Source of the DNA: Candidatus Saccharimonadales bacterium
Lineage (GTDB): Bacteria > Patescibacteriota > Saccharimonadia > Saccharimonadales > EFPC-124
Assembly: GCA_050730875.1 (NCBI GenBank)
Contig: JBOHNX010000001.1
Span: 361,972 to 425,971 of the forward strand
Direction: 5' to 3'
DNA length: 64,000 bases
Of the stretch, positions 2,946 through 32,435 are shown piece by piece. Position numbers and translations under genes: made by a program. A model generated the notes under the pieces. It did not search any database and was not told the DNA's origin. It saw only the letters and a list, made by a program, of their open reading frames with translations. The first letter of the stretch is position 1; each line of letters begins with the position of its first letter.

Positions 2946-5900
2946 CTACTCTTCTTCTGGCAATTCCTGCAGTTCGCGGGCACCGGTACCGACTGGGATC
3001 TTGCGGCCGATGATCACGTTTTCCTTCAAACCATAGAGGTTGTCGACGCGACCACTGGTGGCTGCATTGATCAGCACGCGGGTAGTGTCTTGGAATGACG
3101 CTGCCGAGAGGAAGCTGTCGCTCCAGATAGACACCTTGGTGATACCAAGCAGCAGCTGCGTAAACTGAGTTGGCGCCTTGCCTTCAGCTACAAGCTGTTT
3201 GTTGGTTTCGACCACTGCGGCTTTCGATACGATGTCGCCAGTTACGAACAAGCTGTCGCCGGGGTCTTCAATCTGTACACGGCTGAACATCTGACGCACG
3301 ATGATCTCAAGGTGCTTGTCGGCAATGTTCTGGCCCTGTGCAGCGTAGATGCGCAACACTTCGTTAATCATGTAGCGCTGAGTAGCTTCTACACCCTTCA
3401 GGCGCATGAGGTCGTGCAGGTTGAGTGAACCGTTGGTTAGGCGGTCACCTGCTTCAACCTTGGCACCATCGATAACAGTTAGCTGCTTGAAGCCTGGGAT
3501 TTCGTAGCGAACCGGCGTTTGGTTGCTGCTGTTGAGCACAATGTGCTCTTTGGTTACTTCAACCACGCCGTCGAATGGTGCTGTTACTGGGCGGTCTTCG
3601 TTCTTATCTGAAGCGAGGACGTCGCCAACCAGCACTTGCGTACCACTCTTCACGCGAGCCTTGCGGCCATCGAGTTCGAGTTTTTCGGTGCGACCCTTCT
3701 CAGGAGTAACTTGCACGACATATTGGTCGCCGTCTTCCCAAACTTGGGCAGTACCGGCAATCTCGGTCATGTAAGCTTGACCCTTTGGAGTGCGAGCTTC
3801 GAACAACTCATCGACACGAGGCAGACCCTGGGTGATGTCTTCACCAGCCACACCACCGGCGTGGAAGGTACGAAGCGTCAACTGGGTGCCAGGTTCACCG
3901 ACTGACTGAGCAGCGATAACACCAACCGGTTGGTAGGCGTTAATGAGCTCGTTGGTTGCCATGTCGATACCGTAGCTCTTTTGCGAAATACCGCGGAGCG
4001 ATTGGCAACTGAGCACACTCATAATCTTCACTTCGGTAATCTTCTCGTCTGCTTCGATTGCGTCAGAAATTTCGCGGGTCAGCAGCTCGCCCTTCTTAAC
4101 GTGACCCTTCACGTCTTCGGCTGCGTAGCGGCCAAACAAGCGGTCGCCAAAGGCGATCATGGTTTCTTCAGACTCAGCGCGGTAAATTGCGAAGCCTGGG
4201 TCCTCAGTTTCATCTTCGATAGTGAAGATATCCTGGCTCACGTCTACCAGACGTCGGGTTAGGTAACCTGAGTCGGCGGTCTTGAGCGCGGTGTCAATCA
4301 AACCTTTACGTGCACCACGGGTGGCGACGAAGGCTTCCAGCGGGCTCAGACCCTTCTTGTAGCTAGAGCGGATCGGCAGCTCGATTTCTTTACCGGTCGC
4401 GTCAACCATCACACCAATCATGGCGGTGGCAAGCTTGACGTTCGAGATGTCACCACGAGCACCAGAGTCAACCATCACAGCAACCGAGGTATCTTCTTTT
4501 GCGAGACGTTTTTGCAGTACTTCGAGCACCTTCTTGTCGATTGCACGCCAGGTAGCCACGGTCAGGCTGTAGCGCTCGTCGTCGGTAATTAAACCTTGTT
4601 CGTACTGGTCAGAGATCTTCGCAGCACGCTCTTCACCTTCGCCGATGATGGCATCGAGCCCATCAACGTTGAAGTAGTCGGTCATACCGGTCGAAACGGC
4701 ACCCAAGGTTGCGAATTCGAGCGCGAGATCTTTTACTTCGTCGGCAATGTGGGCAGCGGTTTCTGAACCGTAGCGTTCGAAGACTTTCGCCAGCACCTTA
4801 CCAAGCTTCTTCTTGCCCATAACGTCTTCGACGTACTTGAAGTCTTCAGGTAGAATTTCGTTAAAGTACACGCGGCCCAAAGTGGTTTCGCGAGTCTCAC
4901 CCTTTACAGGAACAATGATTGGGGTTTGCAGTTTGATTACGTCGTGCTCGTAGGCGTAAATTGCTTCGTTGACGTTTGCAAAGCGACGTGGCTTCGCAAC
5001 CTGAGCGCTTGGCTTTGGATAGGTCAGGTAGTAACAACCGAGTACGATGTCCTGGCTGATGTTAAGAATTGGCGAACCATCAGCAGGTTTAAGTAGGTTG
5101 TTGGTTGCGCTCATTAGCTCGCGGGCTTCGCGCTGTGCGTCTTCGCTAAGCGGAAGGTGCACGGCCATCTGGTCACCATCGAAGTCGGCGTTGAAACCTT
5201 TACAGACCAATGGGTGCAGCTGGATAGCTTTACCTTCGATCAGCTTAGGCTGGAAGGCCTGAATCGACAGACGGTGCAGCGATGGAGCACGGTTAAGGAG
5301 TACGTATTTCTCCTTAATGACTTCGTCAAGCGCGTCCCAAACTACGCTGTCACTAGCCTCAATAAGGCGAGTTGCGCTTTTAATGTTGTGGGCGTGTTCG
5401 CGAACAAGCAGTTCTGCGATAACAAATGGCTTAAAGAGTTCAAGTGCCATAAGTTTTGGCAGACCACACTGGTTAATCTTGAGCTCTGGACCAGCCACAA
5501 TAACTGAACGGCCTGAGTAGTCAACACGCTTACCAAGCAGGTTCTGGCGGAAGCGACCTTGTTTACCCTTGAGCATATCGCTAAGGCTCTTCAAACGGCG
5601 GCGGCCACCAGTTGCGCTGACAGCGCGGCCACTCCGTGCAGCCGAATTGTCGATGAGCGCATCAACAGCTTCCTGAAGCATGCGTTGCTCGTTACGGCGG
5701 ATAACTTCCGGCGCGTTGAGGTCAATCAGCTTCTTCAAGCGGTTGTTACGGTTGATCACGCGACGATAGAGATCGTTGAGGTCGCTGGTTGCAAAACGGC
5801 CACCTGTTAGCTGTACCATCGGACGAAGATCCGGTGGGATAACTGGCAGAACAGTCAAGCACATGCTGGTTGGCTTAATGCCAGCGCGCAGCATACCCTC

Positions 5901-6741: not shown

Positions 6742-10116
<3,375 letters not shown>

Positions 10117-10328
10117 ACGAAAAATAGTGCCCCTAAAATTAAGTTGTTGAATCGTGGCGCCCCGAAGATCCACTAAGCCTAGGCTTCCCGGAATTGCCAG
10201 TGGCCAGCCGGCAGACAGGTAGAATTCACCTAGCTTACACTACTTCTTAATCATCTATTCTGGGTTAGTTTTCCACCGCTGTCAAGGAGTTTGGGACTTT
10301 TTTATTGTAGAATTTTCAATAGTCGCTT

Positions 10329-10925
10329 TTACGCTTTTTCGAGCACGCCGTCGATAAGGCCGTACTTCTTTGATTCTTCGGCGCCCATCCAGAAGTCACG
10401 TTCTACATCACGTTCGATCTTGCTGATTTTTTGGCCGGTGTTTTTAGCTAGAATTTGGTTGAGCTGCTTTTTAACTCGCAAACTTTCTTCGAGGTCAATC
10501 TGCATATCGGTAACTGTACCACGTGCAGCGCTAGATGGCTGGTGCACCATCATTTTACTGTGCGGCAAGGCAAAGCGTTTGCCTTTGGCACCTGCAGCAA
10601 GCAAGAAGGCGCCCATGCTGGCGGCGAGGCCGACACAAATGGTTTGCACATCTGGCTTGATGTATTGCATGGTGTCAAAAATAGCGAGGCCGTCGTATAC
10701 GCTGCCGCCGGGACTGTTGATGTAGAGGTAAACATCTTTTTTAGGATCCTCGTACGCCAAGTGCAGCATTTGGGCGATGATGAGGTTTGCGGTGTGTTGG
10801 TTAACGTCGTCACCTAGGAAAATGATGCGCTCTTTTAACAGACGGCTGTAAATATCGTACGCGCGCTCCCCCAGATGCGTTTGTTCGATGACCGTTGGGA
10901 CAAGATAATTGCGAGGTGTATTCAT
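10329..10925 (-). CDS. clpP: ATP-dependent Clp protease proteolytic subunit
   Basis: [27 protein letters not shown], with the Ser ([11 protein letters not shown]) and His (MVHQP) catalytic context. The track start at 10952 is a GTG inside the CIRCE element, so ATG 10925 ([15 protein letters not shown]) is preferred. Confidence 0.95.
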
Positions 10926-10945: not shown

Positions 10946-10972
10946 TTAGCACTCGCTATGCAAGAGTGCTAA
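10946..10972 (-). promoter_or_regulatory. CIRCE element (HrcA operator) with embedded clpP promoter
   Basis: TTAGCACTC-GCTATGCAA-GAGTGCTAA is a perfect match to TTAGCACTC-N9-GAGTGCTAA. On the gene strand the spacer gives TTGCAT (10963-10958), then 17 nt, then TATACT (10940-10935). Confidence 0.85.
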
Positions 10973-11259
10973 TCGTCATCTAACGCATCTGCGTACGGCC
11001 GGCATACCTTCTCGCCGAATTCATCTAACTTATCTGAGAGGTCGGGATAGAATTGCTTTATCCCTCCGCCATACTCATGCACTGCTCTTTCAACCGATTC
11101 TTCGTGGGGCCGCCGCTGCCAGCGAAGTTCAACATATCTTGCAGCGATGCACTTGCTCAAATTATCGATAAACGTATTCGGGAGATTGCGCGCCCGCAGC
11201 TCGGCCAAAAAATCTTGCCCATTGTGACGTTCGTAGTAATACTGGCTCTCGGGCGACAT
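10969..11259 (-). CDS. Hypothetical protein (96 aa)
   Basis: ORF between tig and clpP. Its TAG stop (10971-10969) lies inside the CIRCE right arm. I recognise no family. Confidence 0.5.
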   Translation of the reverse strand: MSPESQYYYERHNGQDFLAELRARNLPNTFIDNLSKCIAARYVELRWQRRPHEESVERAVHEYGGGIKQFYPDLSDKLDEFGEKVCRPYADALDDD

Positions 11260-25148: not shown

Positions 25149-26006
25149 CTATTCTTGTCGGCCGGTTTGCCGAACAATACGATCTTCCAGGTCATCTACC
25201 GGATTGCGGCGCTTGCGCCCGTGATCTGCCTGCTTTGTACTGTGGCTGTGACTCCGTTTTTGTTGCGGTTTAGTTGCATGTGTCTTCTGGGCAGGATGTT
25301 TGTGAGCAACCCTTGCGTGCTTATGCCGCGGCACCGCAAACATCATTTTGCCGGCTTGGGTTTGCAGGATACGGCTAAATTCTACCTCTACCTTTTGGCC
25401 AAGCCACTTTGCAGCTTGTTCGACGACAACCATGGTGCCGTCTTCTAGGTAGCCGACGCCTTGGGTTTTATCTTGGCCAAGTTGTGTAATTTTAATCTCT
25501 GCTTTCTCGCCGGGCAGGTGTGCAACACGGAGTGCCTGAGCAAGTTCATTCACATTAAGCACGCGTACACCTTCGATCTCTGCAACTTGGTTAAGATTAA
25601 AGTCTGTAGTGTATAGCAGTGCGCCGTAGCGTTTAGCCAGAGCAACTAGTTTGTCGTCGACTTCTTTTACTCGCTTGAACGGTGCGGCCATAATAACTAC
25701 TTCGTTCTGGCGCATATCTTGCAAGCGACGTACAACTTCCAAGCCAAATCGAGCGCGCTCGCGCTTGAATGGGTCTGACTGATCGGCCAAATGCTGTAGT
25801 TCAGCAATCACAAACTGTGGGATAATAATCCGCTGTGGGATAAAGCCCGAGTTCACAATTTCGACAATTCGGCCGTCTATAAGTCCGGATGTGTCGACAA
25901 CCATTTGGTTTTTAACTTGTCGGCGGACAGCGCCAAGCTGCCACACAATGTAGCCGAGGGCCAGCGTGTTCAGCGCTGCTATGCCCATTAAAATTTTTTG
26001 ATCCAT
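25149..26006 (-). CDS. yacL: PIN and TRAM domain protein (YacL-like), with a His/Lys-rich tail
   Basis: N-terminal TM helix, PIN-like core (VVDTSGLIDGRI...TTDFNLNQVA), TRAM-like beta region (GVGYLEDGTMVVVE). It sits next to radA, as in Firmicutes. Confidence 0.8.
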   Translation of the reverse strand: MDQKILMGIAALNTLALGYIVWQLGAVRRQVKNQMVVDTSGLIDGRIVEIVNSGFIPQRIIIPQFVIAELQHLADQSDPFKRERARFGLEVVRRLQDMRQNEVVIMAAPFKRVKEVDDKLVALAKRYGALLYTTDFNLNQVAEIEGVRVLNVNELAQALRVAHLPGEKAEIKITQLGQDKTQGVGYLEDGTMVVVEQAAKWLGQKVEVEFSRILQTQAGKMMFAVPRHKHARVAHKHPAQKTHATKPQQKRSHSHSTKQADHGRKRRNPVDDLEDRIVRQTGRQE

Positions 26007-26020
26007 TATAAGTTCCTTCT

Positions 26021-27373
26021 TTAGACTTTTTTGAGAAATGTATTGAGCGCGTCTCGCATTGAGCTAACCGGTTTTACGAACGAATTCTTTTTGGCACCTT
26101 TTGGCGCAATCGCATAGGTAAAGCCAAGCTTCTTTGCTTCGGCCATGCGCTTGTCGGTTTGCGTGGCACTACGTACCTCGCCACTAAGGCCGACTTCGCC
26201 AAATACTACGGCCGTTTGGTCGAGCGCCATTTCTTTGGCTGCCGATGCTATTGCCATACACACGGCAAGATCGGCTGCTGGGTCTTGCAGTTTTATGCCA
26301 CCCACGACGTTGATGTAGATATCGCTATCTGATAAGTTCAGTTTTGTGCGCTTTTCTAGCACCGCAACAAGCAGATTTAGCCGATTTAAATCAAAGCCGG
26401 ATGCAGTGCGTTTAGGATAGCCGAAATGCGTTTTATTCACAAGCGCCTGGATTTCGACCAGCAGCGGTCGATTGCCTTCCAGCGTCGCCAAGACAACCGA
26501 ACCATCGCTCGAAAGTCGCTCTTCCAGTAAGGCCGCCGATGGGTTTGCAACCGGTGTGAGCCCGGCATCGGTCATCTCGAAAATCGCTGCTTCGTTGGTC
26601 GCACCATAGCGGTTTTTAACGGCACGTAACACCTTAAAACCGCCGTATCGATCACCTTCCAAATTCAATACAACGTCGACCATGTGTTCTAGAATCTTTG
26701 GACCAGCAATACTGCCTTCTTTGGTGACGTGACCAACTAATACCAACGCTGTGTCGGTCGACTTCGCCGCCTGCGTAAGCAGGTTAGAAGAATTGGTGAT
26801 TTGACTAACGCTGCCGGATGCAGAACTAAGCTCCTGCATGGCGAGGGTTTGAATCGAGTCGACAATCACAAGCTTGTAGGTTCCAGCTTGAATCGTGGCC
26901 GCAATATCGTCTGCAGATGTTGATGAAGCCAAATGTAAGTTTTCGTGTTGGGCACCGAGCCGCGTGGCACGCACTTTCACCTGCCCCGTTGATTCCTCGC
27001 CGCTCACATATAGCACGGGTAGCTGACGTGCCACGTGATATGCCAATTGCATGAGTAGCGTCGATTTACCAATGCCCGGCTGGCCGGCGATTAGCGTGAC
27101 GCTGGCTGGTACAATGCCGCCGCCAAGCGCGGTGTCGAGATCTGGCATGGCAGTGCCGATTCGTCCTGCTTGATCGCTGGCCTGCACGTCGCCAATCGCC
27201 TGCGCTTGCAAGGTTTTACCTTTACTGCGCGCAACTGCGGTCGCTCCAACCGATTCGACCACTTGTTCAACAAAACTATTCCAGGCGCCACAATTATCGC
27301 AGCGCCCTGACCATTTGGTGCGCGTTGCGCCGCATTGTTGGCAGACAAATTGTGTTACAGATTTCTTCGGCAT
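26021..27373 (-). CDS. radA: DNA repair protein RadA/Sms
   Basis: N-terminal zinc finger CQQCG...CDNCGAWNS, Walker A GQPGIGKST, KNRYG motif, Lon-like C-terminal domain. Confidence 0.95.
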   Translation of the reverse strand: MPKKSVTQFVCQQCGATRTKWSGRCDNCGAWNSFVEQVVESVGATAVARSKGKTLQAQAIGDVQASDQAGRIGTAMPDLDTALGGGIVPASVTLIAGQPGIGKSTLLMQLAYHVARQLPVLYVSGEESTGQVKVRATRLGAQHENLHLASSTSADDIAATIQAGTYKLVIVDSIQTLAMQELSSASGSVSQITNSSNLLTQAAKSTDTALVLVGHVTKEGSIAGPKILEHMVDVVLNLEGDRYGGFKVLRAVKNRYGATNEAAIFEMTDAGLTPVANPSAALLEERLSSDGSVVLATLEGNRPLLVEIQALVNKTHFGYPKRTASGFDLNRLNLLVAVLEKRTKLNLSDSDIYINVVGGIKLQDPAADLAVCMAIASAAKEMALDQTAVVFGEVGLSGEVRSATQTDKRMAEAKKLGFTYAIAPKGAKKNSFVKPVSSMRDALNTFLKKV

Positions 27374-27387
27374 TATTTCTTATTCTA

Positions 27388-28365
27388 TCAGTTAGTTGGT
27401 ACCGTTTGGTATGTACTGTCTAGGCTGTGGTAGAGGTCATTTTGGGCAGCAACCTCGTTATTGCGCTGTACGACGAGCGCATTATAACGGCTGACTAGTG
27501 AGCGAGTTTCGTTTACGGTGGCGTTATAGGAGCGCACCATTGCATTGTAGCCCGGAACGGCCTGGTTGTATGCGTCTGGGTCGCTATTTCTAAGTTGGTT
27601 AAGCCTAGCTGATTCGGCATTGATTTCGCGCTGGCGGTTATCGAGCTCTGTGTAGTTTACGTCAATTTGCTTCTTTAGGTCCGCAAGCTGAGCGTCCAGC
27701 AAGGCTAGCCGTTCTTTCGAAGCAGTAAACACCCCTTCGTATGCTTCGGCAAGACCCACAACCTTATTTCTATCTTTTAAGTACTGTGTATAGTACGCTT
27801 CTAGTTCTGGCGATAGATCGCGGAATTCGGTGCCTAAAATAGAGTGCATTTCGTTTAGCAGCTGCCCAGGCTCGTGCTTGTTATACAAATTAATAAGCCC
27901 CTGCAGCCTGTCGTCCTTTGTTTTAGCCAGCTGAGCTTCGAGTAGCTTGTTGACGCGCTGCTTTTCGCTGTCATCTAGTCGGTCGTATGCAGCGTGGAGC
28001 ATTTCGTGCGCGGCCGTCACCTCTTTAACACCACTAAAACGTGCGTCGGTGACGTTATAGATGTAAATACGCTGCATGGCATAACAGCCGAGCACCAGAC
28101 TTTCTTCGCCAGTGTCAGTACAGTTTTTATTGAAGGTGCTGCGATCGTTCACTTCCGGGTGCGAGACATAAAAGACCGTTCGCCCTTTACCCTCCATGGT
28201 CGCTGCATCTGCTAGTGCTACAATTCCCGCCGGGGGCGTATAGCCATTGAGGCGCCACCAATCGATGAGCTCTTGGCGGTTAAGAAATGTCCAAATTGCG
28301 GCACCAATAATCGCTATACTCAGCGCAAGATTAGCGATTCCCCACCAAACGTGTCGTTCACGCAT
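27388..28365 (-). CDS. Hypothetical membrane-anchored protein with HExxH motif and a C-terminal coiled coil
   Basis: 325 aa. N-terminal TM helix (WWGIANLALSIAIIGAAIWTF), an HEMLH motif, and a long heptad-like Q/N/L-rich C-terminus. Confidence 0.7.
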   Translation of the reverse strand: MRERHVWWGIANLALSIAIIGAAIWTFLNRQELIDWWRLNGYTPPAGIVALADAATMEGKGRTVFYVSHPEVNDRSTFNKNCTDTGEESLVLGCYAMQRIYIYNVTDARFSGVKEVTAAHEMLHAAYDRLDDSEKQRVNKLLEAQLAKTKDDRLQGLINLYNKHEPGQLLNEMHSILGTEFRDLSPELEAYYTQYLKDRNKVVGLAEAYEGVFTASKERLALLDAQLADLKKQIDVNYTELDNRQREINAESARLNQLRNSDPDAYNQAVPGYNAMVRSYNATVNETRSLVSRYNALVVQRNNEVAAQNDLYHSLDSTYQTVPTN

Positions 28366-28379
28366 GGGTAGCTACCTTT

Positions 28380-30860
28380 TTACTCGGTGTGATTTGCGAA
28401 AGCCAGTTCGCCTTTTTTGGTCGTGACATCGATGACATCACCCTTAGTATACCGCTCTTCAAGCAAACCGTTGGCAATTTCGTCTTCAACGGTGTCTTGA
28501 ATAACGCGTCGGAGTGGGCGTACGCCGTTTTGAGCATCGTAGCCCTGCTCGAGCAGCGCTTTTTTGGCGGCAATACCAACCTTCACAGCGACACCTCGTC
28601 GTTGCAGGCGCTTGCCGAGTTTCGCGATTTCGATATCAAGAATCTTGCTGACTTCATGCTTAGTAAGTGCCTTAAAGACAATTATTTTATCCAGGCGGTT
28701 GATGAGCTCTGGACGCATGAAGCTCTTGAGGTCGGCTAACGCAGCCTCGGTATTTTGCTCGTGGACGTCTTCTAGCTCGTCATGGTCCTTTTTAGTTTCG
28801 GCACGGAAACCTAGGTTTGCTTCGCGCTGCATTTTTTCAGCGCCCAAGTTGCTGGTAAGGATGATAACCGTGTTAGTAAAGTCTACCTTGCGGCCTTTGG
28901 CGTCAGTCAGACTACCGTCCTCCATAATCTGCAGTAGAATGTTCAGCACTTCTGGGTGGGCTTTTTCGATTTCGTCAAAGAGCACCAGACTGTACGGCTG
29001 ACGGCGAATTTTATCGGTCAATTGCCCTGCATCGTCATAGCCCACGTAGCCTGCTGGGGCACCGACCAAGCGTGCGGTCGTGTGGCGCTCGGCAAATTCA
29101 CTCATATCGATTTTAATCAGTGCATCTTCCGAACCAAGCAGTTCGCGCGCAAGCACACGGGCAAGCTCTGTTTTACCCACGCCAGTTGGGCCCATAAACA
29201 TGAACGATCCGATCGGGCGGCGCCCCTCACCAATGCCAGAGCGGTTGCGGCGAATCGCGCGGGCAACGGCGTTAATGGCATCGGCCTGACCAACAATGTG
29301 CTTAGCCAAATATTTTTCGAGGTTTAGCAAGTACTTAGCTTCGGACTTGATAACTTTTTCAACCGGCACGCCAGTCATGGTTGCAATGGTGTGCGCAACA
29401 TCATCCGATGAAATAATGAGGGTGTCATGATTTTGCTGATCATTACGCATCTTGTTGAGCTGCGTGTTTAGCTGGCTCATGCGCGTTTTGTAATGCGCGG
29501 CGCGCTCGTAATCTTCAGCCTCGACCGCTTCTTCCATGCGCTCGGTAATAACTTTAAGCTCGCGAGAGAGTTTGCGTACCTCAAGCGGTGCGCGGCCACG
29601 GTCTACCTTTACCTGCGCAGAGGTTTCATCCAAAACATCAATTGCTTTATCGGGCATGTAGCGGTCGTTAATATACCGCTTGGCGAGATATGCAATGTCG
29701 CTCAATACCTCGTCGCCTACTTCGACGCCATGGTGTTTTTCGTAGTGCCGCTTCAAACCTCTGAGGATGGCCAGCGTTTCTTTAACGGTTGGCTCAGGCA
29801 CGATAACGGTCTGGAAGCGGCGTTCGAGCGCGGCATCTTTTTCGATGTGCTTGCGGTATTCATCGAGCGTAGTTGCACCAACGAGGCGTAGTTTACCGCG
29901 AGCCAATGCAGGTTTGAGCATGTTCGCGGCATCGATTGCACCTTCGGCTGCACCAGCGCCAACCAGCAAGTGGAGCTCGTCAATAAATACTATGGCGTTA
30001 TCGTCACTAATAAGTTCTTCGAGCAATTTCTTCAGACGCTCTTCAAATTCACCACGGTATTTAGTACCGGCAATCATACCTGCAAGGTCAAGTGTCACAA
30101 TGCGCTTGTCTAGCAGGTGGTCGGGCACTTCCTCGTTAACAATGCGCTGCGCCAAACCTTCGACAATGGCAGTTTTACCAACGCCTGGCTCGCCCAGCAA
30201 GACTGGGTTATTTTTGGTGCGGCGGCCCAAGATGGTGATCATGCGCTTAATTTGCGTATCGCGGCCGACTACTGGGTCGAGCTCGCCGGCACGTGCGCGT
30301 TCTGTTAAATCAGTACCAAAGTAATCGAGTGCTGTTTGGCGGCGATTGCGACGACGGGTGCGCACATTTTTACCCTCGTTGGCGCTATCGTATTCAAACT
30401 GCTGCCGATTAAGATATTGCTCGAGGTCGCCCGTGAGCGAATCGATATCGACACTCATGTCGCGCAACAGCACAGTAGCACGAGCATTCTTTTGCGTCAG
30501 GATGCTGTACAGGATGTGCTCGGTGCCACAGTAATCCTGGTTAAACTCCTGCGCAATGTCCCAGCTAAGTTTTAGAGTTAATTTAGCTGTTTCGCTCAAA
30601 CCCTTTGCGCCGGTGCTGACCACCAAGGCGCGTGGCGTTAAATTAAGCGCCAAGCGCGCACGGTCAAGCGTAACGCCTTGGCCTGCCAGGAGTTTTGCGC
30701 CTACCGAAGAGTCTTGGCTTAAAACACCGAGCAAAATGTGCTCGGTGCCGATGTACGCAGAGCCGAGGCTACGCGCTATGCCGTCGGCATGCTGCAGGCT
30801 CGACCGTGCGTTATCAGTTAAATGGTTTACAAAATCGTGAAGATCGCCAGTTGGCATCAT
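28380..30860 (-). CDS. clpC: ATP-dependent Clp protease ATP-binding subunit ClpC
   Basis: Two Clp_N repeats ([20 protein letters not shown]), Walker A motifs GEPGVGKT and GPTGVGKT, a UVR-like [12 protein letters not shown] segment, and an LGF ClpP-docking loop. The track start at 30881 is TTG; ATG 30860/30857 is preferred. Confidence 0.93.
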
Positions 30861-30913
30861 ATCTCTAAATCTACCTTCCAAAGTGCATTACACTGCATTT
30901 TTAGTATAAAAAA

Positions 30914-30940
30914 TTAGCACTCCGTATGCAAGAGTGCTAA
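30914..30940 (-). promoter_or_regulatory. CIRCE element (HrcA operator) with embedded clpC promoter
   Basis: TTAGCACTC-CGTATGCAA-GAGTGCTAA is a perfect consensus match. On the gene strand TTGCAT (30931-30926), 17 nt, TATACT (30908-30903). Confidence 0.85.
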
Positions 30941-30972: not shown

Positions 30973-31263
30973 TTACATGCGTCTGCGCCTAATTTCGTTT
31001 TCAAGCGCTTTTATCGCGCGATACTGCTCGTTACCTCCCCATACAAACTTACTATGATCTTCGAGGGATGGGTCTATCCCGCAACCCGCGATACCGTAAT
31101 CTGCGGTTTTGCGAGAGTCATAGCCAGTGCACTTTGCAATCGCCGAGCCCACTAGCCTCTTAACTTCAGCTGAACTGGCAGGTTCATCTAAAAGAGTTTG
31201 TCCCTCACGAGCAACAGGACAATTACGACACTCAGGCGGCAGCATGTCGGGCAGCTCGCCCAC
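30973..31263 (-). CDS. Hypothetical Cys-containing protein (96 aa)
   Basis: ORF directly downstream of nusA, with a 2-nt gap. Contains CRNC...C...C. I recognise no family. Confidence 0.5.
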   Translation of the reverse strand: MGELPDMLPPECRNCPVAREGQTLLDEPASSAEVKRLVGSAIAKCTGYDSRKTADYGIAGCGIDPSLEDHSKFVWGGNEQYRAIKALENEIRRRRM

Positions 31264-31265
31264 GG

Positions 31266-32408
31266 CTATCCCTCTTTGCTGGTTTCTTCAATCGCGTTCA
31301 GCAAGGAATCTTCGACGTTCTTCTTTGGCTTAGCTTTCGCTACAGTTTCGGTGTTACCGGCAGCGTCTTTAGCAGCTTCGATGTCAATTTCGTAACCGGT
31401 GAGGCGTGACGCCAGGCGGACGTTTTGCCCACCGCGACCAATAGCGATCGAAAGCTGGTCCGTCGCAACAAGTACCTTCGCGTGTTTGTTGGCTTCGTCA
31501 ATGGTGATGCTCGATACTTCAGCTGGGCTGAGGGCATTCGTAATGAACGTAACAGGATCGTCGCTAAAGGTGATGATGTCGACTTTTTCGCTGTCGCCAA
31601 TCTCGTTCATAACAGCCTGTACGCGGGTACCGTGGCCACCAACGAAGGTACCGACTGGGTCAACACCCGGCACGGTGCTGAGCACGGCAATTTTGGTGCG
31701 CTTGCCGGCTTCGCGAGCGATGGCTTTGATCTCTACTGCGCCGCTGTCCATCTCTGGTACTTCTTGGCGGAAGAGATACTCAATAAATGATTCGTTCGAA
31801 CGGCTCAAAATAAGCTGTGGACCGCGGTTACCGCGCTCAACATCTTTTAAGTACACTTTTACGCGCGAGCCAATGCCGTAATATTCACCAGGAATTTGCT
31901 CTGACTGCGGGATGATACCAGTTGCTTTGCCGAGCTCGACACGCACAACTCGCGGCTCGACACGCTGGACTGTACCGGTAATAACGGTGCCGATTTTGTC
32001 GGCATATTCTTCCATCACAACTTCGCGCTCAGCTTCGCGTAGCTTCTGCAAAATAACCTGCTTGGCCGTTTGTGCAGCAACGCGACCGAAGGTGGTTGGA
32101 TTGTCAGTTTCTTCAACGACATCGCCAACCTCAACATCTTTTTTGAGCTTTCGGCCTTCCTCGAGACTTACTTCGATAGCCGGGTCGGTGACTTCATCGA
32201 CAACTTGTTTGCTAATGTAAACGGTCACGGTGCCGTTGTTAGAATTAAGCTTCGCGCGAACTTCTTGCTCGCGATCACCAAAGTCGCGACGGTAGGCAGC
32301 CGCAACGGCTTGCTCGATAATATCGTGAACGGTGTCTTCGGGCAGATTTTTTTCATCTGCAATTTGCTTGATTGAGAGGGCGAGTTGTTTAATGTTTAAC
32401 TCGTGCAT
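31266..32408 (-). CDS. nusA: Transcription termination/antitermination factor NusA
   Basis: NTD, S1 and KH1/KH2 architecture (GDREQEVRAK..., GTVQRVEPRVVRVELG, VPGVDPVGTFVGGHGTRVQAV, AIGRGGQNVRLAS). ATG 32408 has AAGGA 7 nt upstream, whereas the track start at 32423 does not. Confidence 0.95.
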   Translation of the reverse strand: MHELNIKQLALSIKQIADEKNLPEDTVHDIIEQAVAAAYRRDFGDREQEVRAKLNSNNGTVTVYISKQVVDEVTDPAIEVSLEEGRKLKKDVEVGDVVEETDNPTTFGRVAAQTAKQVILQKLREAEREVVMEEYADKIGTVITGTVQRVEPRVVRVELGKATGIIPQSEQIPGEYYGIGSRVKVYLKDVERGNRGPQLILSRSNESFIEYLFRQEVPEMDSGAVEIKAIAREAGKRTKIAVLSTVPGVDPVGTFVGGHGTRVQAVMNEIGDSEKVDIITFSDDPVTFITNALSPAEVSSITIDEANKHAKVLVATDQLSIAIGRGGQNVRLASRLTGYEIDIEAAKDAAGNTETVAKAKPKKNVEDSLLNAIEETSKEG

Positions 32409-32435
32409 GTAAGTTCCTTTCATGTCTTAGGGCAG

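Follow-up and report, generated by a model that had tools for sequence, protein, structure and literature searches.

The clpC block and its surroundings

The window, by which we mean the whole stretch of DNA analyzed (64 kb), carries on its minus strand a block of four genes that begins with clpC (28380-30860). The encoded protein of 826 aa shows the Pfam domains Clp_N, AAA, a UVR motif, AAA_2 and ClpB_D2-small, and the closest relatives among the matches listed are the ClpC proteins of two Saccharimonadales MAGs (L057 with 82% identity and L119 with 77%), both of which have the same element upstream of clpC as the one described below. The window is accordingly assigned to a Saccharimonadales genome. 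The next gene (27388-28365, minus strand) encodes a 325-aa protein without a Pfam family, which its translation suggests to be a putative zinc peptidase. It contains the motif TAAHEMLHA at about residues 116-124, where HEMLH corresponds to HExxH, and a hydrophobic N-terminal stretch that reads as a putative membrane helix. Of the 13 Saccharibacteria homologues located between clpC and radA, 12 retain the HExxH motif. The third gene, radA (26021-27373, minus strand), is syntenic in relatives and was assigned by its Pfam zinc ribbon, AAA_25/KaiC and Lon_C/ChlI domains, and the presumed operon ends with a gene (25149-26006, minus strand) for a PIN-TRAM protein of the yacL type (Pfam PIN and TRAM). 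Neighboring genes of the block are always 14 nt apart, and on the gene strand none of these gaps contains a convincing terminator. Upstream of clpC, and on the same strand, nusA (31266-32423, identified by Pfam) and a 96-aa ORF (30973-31263) occupy together 30973-32423, and the CIRCE element at clpC starts 32 nt past their end.

This arrangement is not particular to the window, as nusA precedes clpC in Saccharibacteria relatives too and the order nusA-CIRCE-clpC-HExxH-radA-yacL is conserved among them, with L119 containing the whole gene order nusA-clpC-HExxH-radA-yacL. Thus, the placement of the element at the head of the clpC/HExxH/radA/yacL block, as given in a preliminary description of this DNA, holds. 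The same description regarded ctsR, mcsA and mcsB, the genes heading the equivalent block in Firmicutes, as absent. In agreement, none of HrcA, CtsR, McsA, McsB, GroEL or DnaK was found by Pfam or NCBIfam among the window ORFs of at least 90 aa, and the promoter has no CtsR box. A search of the window for the CtsR box (A/GGTCAAANANA/GGTCAAA) gave four weak matches versus 5.9 expected, none of them near clpC or clpP, while the same search found CtsR boxes upstream of clpC in seven non-Saccharibacteria control loci, at a distance of 1-2 kb. With boxes at chance level and no ctsR, mcsA or mcsB among the ORFs of at least 90 aa, control of the window clp promoters by CtsR was rejected. In addition, an Rfam scan assigned no RNA family to either of the two CIRCE sites and found only one tRNA in the window.

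Two perfect CIRCE elements in the window

Positions 30914-30940 read TTAGCACTC-CGTATGCAA-GAGTGCTAA on the plus strand. On the gene strand (minus), the putative CIRCE operator of clpC is formed by the left arm TTAGCACTC (30940-30932), the spacer TTGCATACG (30931-30923) and the right arm GAGTGCTAA (30922-30914), and is followed by ttttt, the hexamer TATACT, 42 nt and the ATGATG at which clpC opens, so that 53 nt separate the end of the element from the clpC ATG. The whole 64-kb window was searched with the pattern TTAGCACTC-N9-GAGTGCTAA at a tolerance of three mismatches, and only two matches were obtained, at 10946-10972 and 30914-30940. Both are perfect, with the consensus base at 18 of 18 arm positions and a spacer of 9 nt. 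The number of matches expected by chance is 0.02, and two matches were not reached in any of 100 dinucleotide-preserving shuffles.

The sister element (10946-10972, minus strand) lies in front of clpP and reads, on the gene strand, TTAGCACTC-TTGCATAGC-GAGTGCTAA-tttca-TATACT, with TTGCATAGC as the spacer and the hexamer at 10940-10935, followed after 9 nt by the clpP ATG at 10925, which is 20 nt from the end of the element. It is situated between a 96-aa ORF, which follows tig, and clpP, with rpoB and rpoC coming next, and the stop codon of the ORF upstream is located inside the left arm. A paralogy of the two 96-aa ORFs that precede the two elements was considered and rejected, the ORFs being unrelated. 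The distance between the two sites is 19,968 nt, matching the roughly 20 kb given in the preliminary description, which had also reported a perfect CIRCE at 30914-30940, a TTGCAT at the start of the spacer with TATACT exactly 17 nt later, and a likeness between the clpC and clpP sites unlikely to have arisen by chance. The sequence at 30914-30940 is as claimed and is one of two window matches against 0.02 expected, the hexamers and their distance were found at both sites on the gene strand, and the likeness exceeds chance, both copies being perfect where shuffles give 0.02.

As a palindrome, the clpC element could also function mainly as an RNA hairpin that ends the transcript of nusA and the 96-aa ORF, in which case its CIRCE likeness would be of secondary importance; alternatively, it could be terminator and operator at once. 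On the gene strand of this site, AGTTAGCACTC...GAGTGCTAATT followed by TTTTTATACT was scored as terminator-like by the scanner, the hairpin has a centroid structure of about -14.7 kcal/mol and its start lies 32 nt past the stop codon of the ORF upstream. However, the stem contains only four G-C pairs. The fold is no better than that of shuffled sequences (z = -1.2), for which reason an RNA-structure role was rejected as the main function. Moreover, the arms are identical to the HrcA operator at every base, the clpP copy lacks the T-run and is not scored as a terminator, and the same element stands before heat-shock genes in dozens of genomes irrespective of the gene upstream (see below). A terminator would also leave unexplained the conserved -10 hexamer at a fixed distance and the choice of downstream genes. 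We regard the terminator explanation as very unlikely, although a secondary role of the clpC palindrome in ending nusA transcripts is possible.

Distribution of the element within the lineage

A set of 185,579 species-representative genomes was scanned for TTAGCACTC-TTGCAT-NNN-GAGTGCTAA, which resulted in at least 119 loci. Those listed comprise 74 loci from Saccharibacteria, Saccharimonadia or Nanosyncoccus, nine that have Saccharibacteria-like genes under vague or doubtful labels, four from other Patescibacteria and 32 from other phyla, the latter being mostly Clostridia among the matches listed. The first downstream ORF over the at least 119 loci encodes an Hsp100 ATPase in 45 cases, DnaJ in 31, HrcA in five, GroES in four, ClpP in three and DnaK in two. 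Among the matches listed, the remaining downstream ORFs are assorted singletons, mostly at non-Saccharibacteria loci, and include an Hsp20 at L068. Among the matches listed, 27 of the 45 Hsp100 proteins are at least 50% identical to the window ClpC over most of the length of the latter, and six more are cut by contig ends and have an N-terminus like that of the window ClpC, bringing the total of clpC genes that follow a perfect element in Saccharibacteria genomes to about 33; the other Hsp100 genes encode ClpB or a form of 710-734 aa lacking the N-domain. Since the scan required TTGCAT in the spacer, these gene counts indicate the breadth of the association and not regulon frequencies. The common regulator that the preliminary description had proposed for the clpC and clpP sites gains support from this distribution, as in many Saccharibacteria genomes the same element is found at clpC, clpP, clpB, dnaJ, dnaK, groES and hrcA, pointing to shared control.

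In addition, clpC loci were taken from metagenome contigs by protein similarity alone, without regard to the element. Five of these loci (L121-L125) have the synteny nusA-clpC-HExxH-radA, and four of the five (L121-L124) contain a CIRCE, located 87-119 nt before the ClpC match. The element of L121 has one arm mismatch and the spacer TTGCATTGA, that of L122 two arm mismatches and the spacer TTGACTCGA, and those of L123 and L124 have no arm mismatch, with TTGATATTA and GCTTGACCC as the respective spacers. The hexamers in these four spacers are TTGACT, TTGATA, TTGACC and TTGCAT. No CIRCE was found in the fifth syntenic relative, L125, where only 40 nt separate nusA from the Shine-Dalgarno sequence before clpC. 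At 75 clpC loci of other bacteria, whose proteins are 41-47% identical, no CIRCE was detected before clpC with up to four mismatches, and the sole match in this control set (L143) has three mismatches and is located 330 nt upstream. Considering four of five syntenic relatives versus none of 75 other loci, the CIRCE at clpC is specific to the lineage and kept in most of its members, though not in all. The conservation upstream of clpC in relatives, on which the preliminary description depended, is thus present in this unselected sample, with L125 as the exception.

A probable promoter embedded in the operator

The preliminary description read a promoter into the element, with the first six bases of the spacer, TTGCAT (30926-30931, minus strand), as the proposed -35 and TATACT (30903-30908, minus strand), 5 nt past the right arm, as the proposed -10. 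The former agrees with TTGACA at three of six positions and the latter with TATAAT at five of six, with a distance of 17 nt between them, which falls below the threshold of the scanner. Consequently, no promoter was called by the consensus promoter scan at either the clpC or the clpP site; the scanner is silent because TTGCAT matches TTGACA at three of six positions only, and its silence leaves comparison as the only ground for the promoter reading.

The comparison separates the lineage from other bacteria that have the same arms and spacer start. Among the matches listed, TAnnnT exactly 17 nt after TTGCAT occurs at 68 of the 74 Saccharibacteria loci, at all nine Saccharibacteria-like ones and at three of the four from other Patescibacteria; for the other phyla, with the same CIRCE and spacer, the figure is 2/32. 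Taking the two Saccharibacteria-type groups together, this amounts to 77/83 versus 2/32 (again among the matches listed). The column counts at the -10 position read T-A-t-A-a-T. In Saccharibacteria CIRCEs, the -35 position is occupied by TTGCAT, TTGACA, TTGACT or TTGATA, and the -10 hexamer follows 16-18 nt downstream in nearly all of them (19 nt in L122). Four CIRCEs at the same loci that had not been selected by the pattern have spacers starting with TTGACA and, at 17 nt, TATACT or TATCAT. Moreover, the two hexamers shift together. In the hrcA promoters of L049 and L056, TTGCAA or TTGCAT is found at spacer positions 4-9, that is 3 nt later, and the -10 lies 8 nt instead of 5 nt past the right arm, by which the distance of 17 nt is kept; in L124, the hexamer has moved by 2 nt within the spacer and the -35 and -10 are 16 nt apart. 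Spacers that vary among -35-like hexamers, with the -10 moving along, are what selection on a promoter predicts, and not selection on the spacer sequence as such. The embedded promoter is thereby borne out by comparison as the probable reading of these hexamers, considering both the 77/83 versus 2/32 among the matches listed and the co-shifting hexamers.

The position of the start codons is consistent with this reading. In 57 of 85 lineage promoters among the matches listed, an ATG opening a long ORF is located 6-12 nt past the -10, implying leaderless or near-leaderless mRNAs. The clpP gene of the window, with 9 nt, fits this pattern and its mRNA is thus probably leaderless; for the clpC gene of the window, the gap from the -10 to the ATG is 42 nt, so that a leader of about 36 nt is implied. 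Given how far a start normally lies from its -10, transcription of clpC is expected to begin near 30895-30897, which would make 30861-30897 (minus strand) the 5' untranslated region. A GGAAGG run resembling a Shine-Dalgarno sequence is present upstream of clpC at 30879-30874.

It could be argued that the CIRCE is real and that the promoter lies elsewhere, with the element being transcribed as part of the 5' leader and TTGCAT and TATACT not acting as a promoter. The weak match of the -35 and the silent scanner are compatible with this arrangement, and it is the one known from Bacillus subtilis dnaK and groE, where transcription starts upstream of the CIRCE and the coding region follows it. It does not account, however, for a -10 at 17 nt in 77/83 loci of the lineage and 2/32 of the others (among the matches listed), nor for spacers that vary among -35-like hexamers while shifting together with the -10. 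The available space is also against it: with an ATG 6-12 nt past the -10 in 57/85 cases (among the matches listed) there is no room for another promoter downstream, and at clpP the upstream ORF extends into the left arm, leaving no room for a promoter upstream. A promoter outside the element is, in our judgment, improbable, if the least improbable of the three rival explanations that we weighed.

A short HrcA in Saccharimonadales

A tblastn search of the 64-kb window with Saccharibacteria HrcA gave no match. In the lineage, however, HrcA homologues of 231-252 aa are encoded in L049, L056, L059, L076 and L201, each behind its own CIRCE. The proteins of the first four contain PF03444 (winged helix) and PF01628, both above the Pfam cut-offs, with a partial coverage of PF01628 that starts at profile positions 88-106 (~88-215). 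In L201 (MAG DASWIF01), the short hrcA heads a canonical hrcA-grpE-dnaK-dnaJ operon, whose promoter has a CIRCE with the spacer TTGACTTGT, a TATAAT and, 9 nt further on, the start of another CIRCE, which is weaker. A search for further HrcA homologues scored at least 8,000, of which the best 120 clusters are all of the short form (216-250 aa). In the JGI data the names in these 120 clusters are "heat-inducible transcriptional repressor", and in NCBI "DeoR family" or "transcriptional regulator" of Saccharimonadales. The homologues thus indicate that HrcA is widespread in the lineage as a short form of about 235 aa with its own CIRCE.

The short HrcA aligns with the HrcA of Thermotoga maritima (1stz, 338 aa) at residues 16-134, and a second stretch (149-182 of the short HrcA versus 249-281 of 1stz) is weak and non-significant. 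An AlphaFold (AF2) model of the short protein has a mean pLDDT of 79, and its best match in the PDB is 1stz_A (TM-score 0.70 when normalized to the query, 0.53 to the target). The canonical HrcA of about 340 aa with an inserted domain is not matched throughout, as about 100 residues between ~134 and ~249 of 1stz have no counterpart. Taken together, the alignment and the model suggest that the short form keeps the winged-helix and GAF-like parts and lacks about 100 residues. The missing segment of 1stz is, we presume, the inserted dimerizing domain.

These proteins also bear on the possibility that the genome is devoid of HrcA, leaving the element as a relic or as the target of some other protein. 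The absence of hrcA from the 64-kb window fits this possibility, and so do the NCBI labels of the lineage homologues, which say only "DeoR family" or "transcriptional regulator". On the other hand, both copies of the element are perfect at all 18 arm positions, which is unexpected for DNA that is not under selection, short HrcA proteins with the Pfam HrcA domains are common in Saccharimonadales behind a CIRCE of their own, and the predicted fold of the short HrcA has 1stz as its best match. A relic, or an operator for some other protein, is the most improbable of the three rivals.

Proposed mechanism and regulon

Given the sequence comparisons, it is probable that the element is an HrcA operator coinciding with the promoter, of sigma-70 type, that serves the clpC-HExxH-radA-yacL operon. 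In this arrangement, the first six bases of the spacer would serve as the -35 and the -10 hexamer would lie 5 nt beyond the right arm, so that, relative to the predicted start, the arms would extend from about -46 to -20 with the -35 between them. An HrcA dimer on the arms would cover the -35 and the promoter spacer, block the contact of the sigma factor and exclude RNA polymerase. In Bacillus, a model in which HrcA activity is titrated through GroEL is well established. By extension of this model, unfolded proteins would occupy GroEL, HrcA would become inactive and the operon would be transcribed. HrcA binding, the transcription start, repression and heat induction are what we infer from the architecture of the site. 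Among the matches listed, groES in the lineage carries a CIRCE as well.

The clpP promoter is of the same build, which would place clpC and clpP in one regulon. In the lineage, this regulon would also take in clpB, dnaJ, the hrcA-grpE-dnaK operon, groES and hsp20, and the HrcA regulon may fill the role known for CtsR in Firmicutes. More broadly, we are inclined, by a modest balance, towards the view that protein quality control in Saccharibacteria, and seemingly in some further Patescibacteria, has a single master repressor, namely a truncated HrcA (about 235 aa) without the ~100-residue insert. It would act on clpC-HExxH-radA-yacL, clpP, clpB, the N-domain-less Hsp100, dnaJ, hrcA-grpE-dnaK, groES and hsp20 through a CIRCE whose spacer supplies the -35, with mostly leaderless transcripts.

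Almost nothing is known of transcription control in Saccharibacteria and the candidate phyla radiation, and the element offers a testable regulon, in which a single operator type and a single repressor would serve about ten target genes. It also provides a core-promoter model for the phylum, namely a -35 of TTGaca or TTGcat, a spacer of 17 nt and a -10 of TAtAaT, often with leaderless transcripts. Furthermore, the promoter-operator forms a cassette of about 46 bp, probably stress-inducible, which could serve the genetic systems now at hand for Saccharibacteria (PMC10633639). Our full-text literature search returned no paper treating HrcA or CIRCE in Saccharibacteria or Patescibacteria; the TM7x transcriptome papers mention changes in clpB and clpP, which are weak hints only.

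Comparison with known HrcA and CtsR systems

The control of dnaK and groE by HrcA and CIRCE is textbook knowledge, and one of the closest likenesses of the element described here is to the CIRCE/HrcA system of Bacillus subtilis (dnaK, groESL) and many other bacteria. The 9-bp arms and the 9-nt spacing are the same (TTAGCACTC-N9-GAGTGCTAA), the element is placed before heat-shock genes and the lineage HrcA is preceded by its own CIRCE. Three differences stand against these likenesses. The CIRCE targets here are clpC and clpP, which are protease genes under CtsR in Bacillus. The HrcA of the lineage is about 100 aa shorter. Finally, the operator appears to overlap both the -35 and the promoter spacer, rather than being placed beyond the start; in B. 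subtilis dnaK and groE, the CIRCE follows the transcription start and precedes the coding region, as PMC4245973 reports from Zuber and Schumann (1994).

Mollicutes such as Mycoplasma gallisepticum, Spiroplasma and Acholeplasma are comparable in having reduced genomes, and their stress regulation depends mainly or solely on HrcA. Their CIRCE targets include clpB, lon, dnaK and dnaJ (PMC4245973, PMC5138195), and in the clpB promoter of M. gallisepticum the CIRCE adjoins an extended -10 (PMC5282649). Some Mollicute promoters have two CIRCE copies (PMC5138195), as do the dnaK and hrcA promoters of Saccharibacteria. In contrast, clpC and clpP are not among the CIRCE targets reported for Mollicutes in these two papers (PMC4245973, PMC5138195), and a -35-like hexamer is kept in the CIRCE spacer here, whereas Mollicute promoters are simplified (PMC5138195). 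The assignment of the CtsR job to HrcA, which our observations suggest can take place in a reduced genome, extends what is known from Mollicutes.

With regard to the Firmicutes operon ctsR-mcsA-mcsB-clpC-radA-...-yacL, the downstream order of clpC, radA and the PIN-TRAM gene (yacL) is alike, and the logic would resemble that of the CtsR regulon, in which a heat-sensitive repressor acts over clp promoters. Unlike in Firmicutes, no ctsR, mcsA or mcsB was found among the window ORFs of at least 90 aa and no CtsR box at the clp promoters, and the gene of a putative membrane protein with HExxH separates clpC from radA. A precedent for CIRCE and HrcA acting on a clp protease gene is clpP of Streptococcus salivarius, which is controlled by CtsR and HrcA according to Chastanet and Msadek (2003), as referred to in PMC3842655 (reference 22). 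As far as that reference conveys, HrcA acts there jointly with CtsR, whereas in the present case the CIRCE is the only recognizable operator and is found at clpC as well. In summary, this is a known system in a new lineage, and the gain is one of scope and architecture, not of a new mechanism. The traits that distinguish it, as they appear from the sequences, are clpC and clpP as targets without CtsR, a -35 that lies in the operator spacer class-wide and a shortened repressor.

Start-codon distance and double CIRCEs

Among the matches listed, the start codon lies 6-12 nt past the -10 hexamer in 57 of 85 CIRCE promoters, this set being those loci within L002-L120 that are of Saccharibacteria type or from other Patescibacteria, which came from the genome scan for CIRCEs with a TTGCAT spacer. 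Given this short distance, the sequences suggest that leaderless mRNAs are the rule for the heat-shock genes of the Saccharibacteria lineage. In Saccharibacteria, the promoters of hrcA-grpE-dnaK and of dnaK each contain two CIRCEs (L201, the hrcA-grpE-dnaK-dnaJ locus of MAG DASWIF01, 9923-9996; L015, 403-474; L049, 5192-5266; L056, 5079-5151; L069; and L101). The -35 hexamer is located within the spacer of one of them, and the second, mostly weaker, begins about 9-10 nt past the -10 hexamer, where it overlies the predicted transcription start.

Genes behind CIRCE promoters and their organization

In gut and oral Saccharibacteria, clpP is found within the clpC operon at a minimum of 12 loci (L011, L013, L019, L042, L046, L050, L064, L067, L078, L085, L098 and L107), in the order clpC, in some cases the HExxH gene, then clpP and radA. 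A degenerate CIRCE (TTGGCACTC-N9-GAGTGCTAT) adjoins the clpP start codon in L042 and L046, and its arms could themselves provide TTGGCA and TATACT hexamers. A CIRCE promoter also precedes an Hsp100 ATPase that lacks the Clp N-domain and measures 710-734 aa in at least seven Saccharibacteria genomes (L027, L035, L038, L052, L081, L087 and L090).

Of the 13 Saccharibacteria loci examined, 12 have retained the HExxH protein between clpC and radA. In the window it comprises 325 aa (27388-28365), with a hydrophobic N-terminal stretch that, judged from the sequence, is likely a membrane helix and a conserved zinc-peptidase-like motif, (V/T)TAAHEMLHA; the remainder gave a weak coiled-coil PFAM match below threshold, and the libraries used for scanning contained no family for this protein.

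In one syntenic Saccharibacteria relative (L125), no CIRCE was identified before clpC (4930-5000), the element having been either lost or never present. There, the 40-nt gap between nusA and clpC and the strong AAGGAGG ribosome-binding site suggest that clpC is transcribed jointly with nusA.

In the window, clpP lies directly 5' of rpoB-rpoC on the same strand. The 155-nt gap between clpP and rpoB (10173-10329) has no terminator-like site and includes a promoter-like site, TTGACA-17-CAGAAT (10285-10257); transcription from the clpP CIRCE promoter may run through into the RNA polymerase genes. At 10969-10972, the TAG stop of a 96-aa ORF (10969-11259) located after tig falls within the clpP CIRCE, in its left arm. 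No family match was obtained for this ORF and, when compared with the 96-aa ORF upstream of clpC, the two proved unrelated.

A short HrcA in Saccharibacteria

At 231-250 aa, the HrcA of Saccharibacteria is a short form of the protein, versus about 340 aa in canonical HrcA (L076, 5886-6581; L059, 2701-3456; L049, 5796-6503; L056, 5648-6355; and L201, 10001-10708), and its NCBI labels read just "DeoR family" or "transcriptional regulator". Relative to the T. maritima HrcA structure (1stz), about 100 residues between positions ~134 and ~249 are missing. Despite this shortening, 1stz was the best match of the predicted AF2 model of the short HrcA (pLDDT 79).
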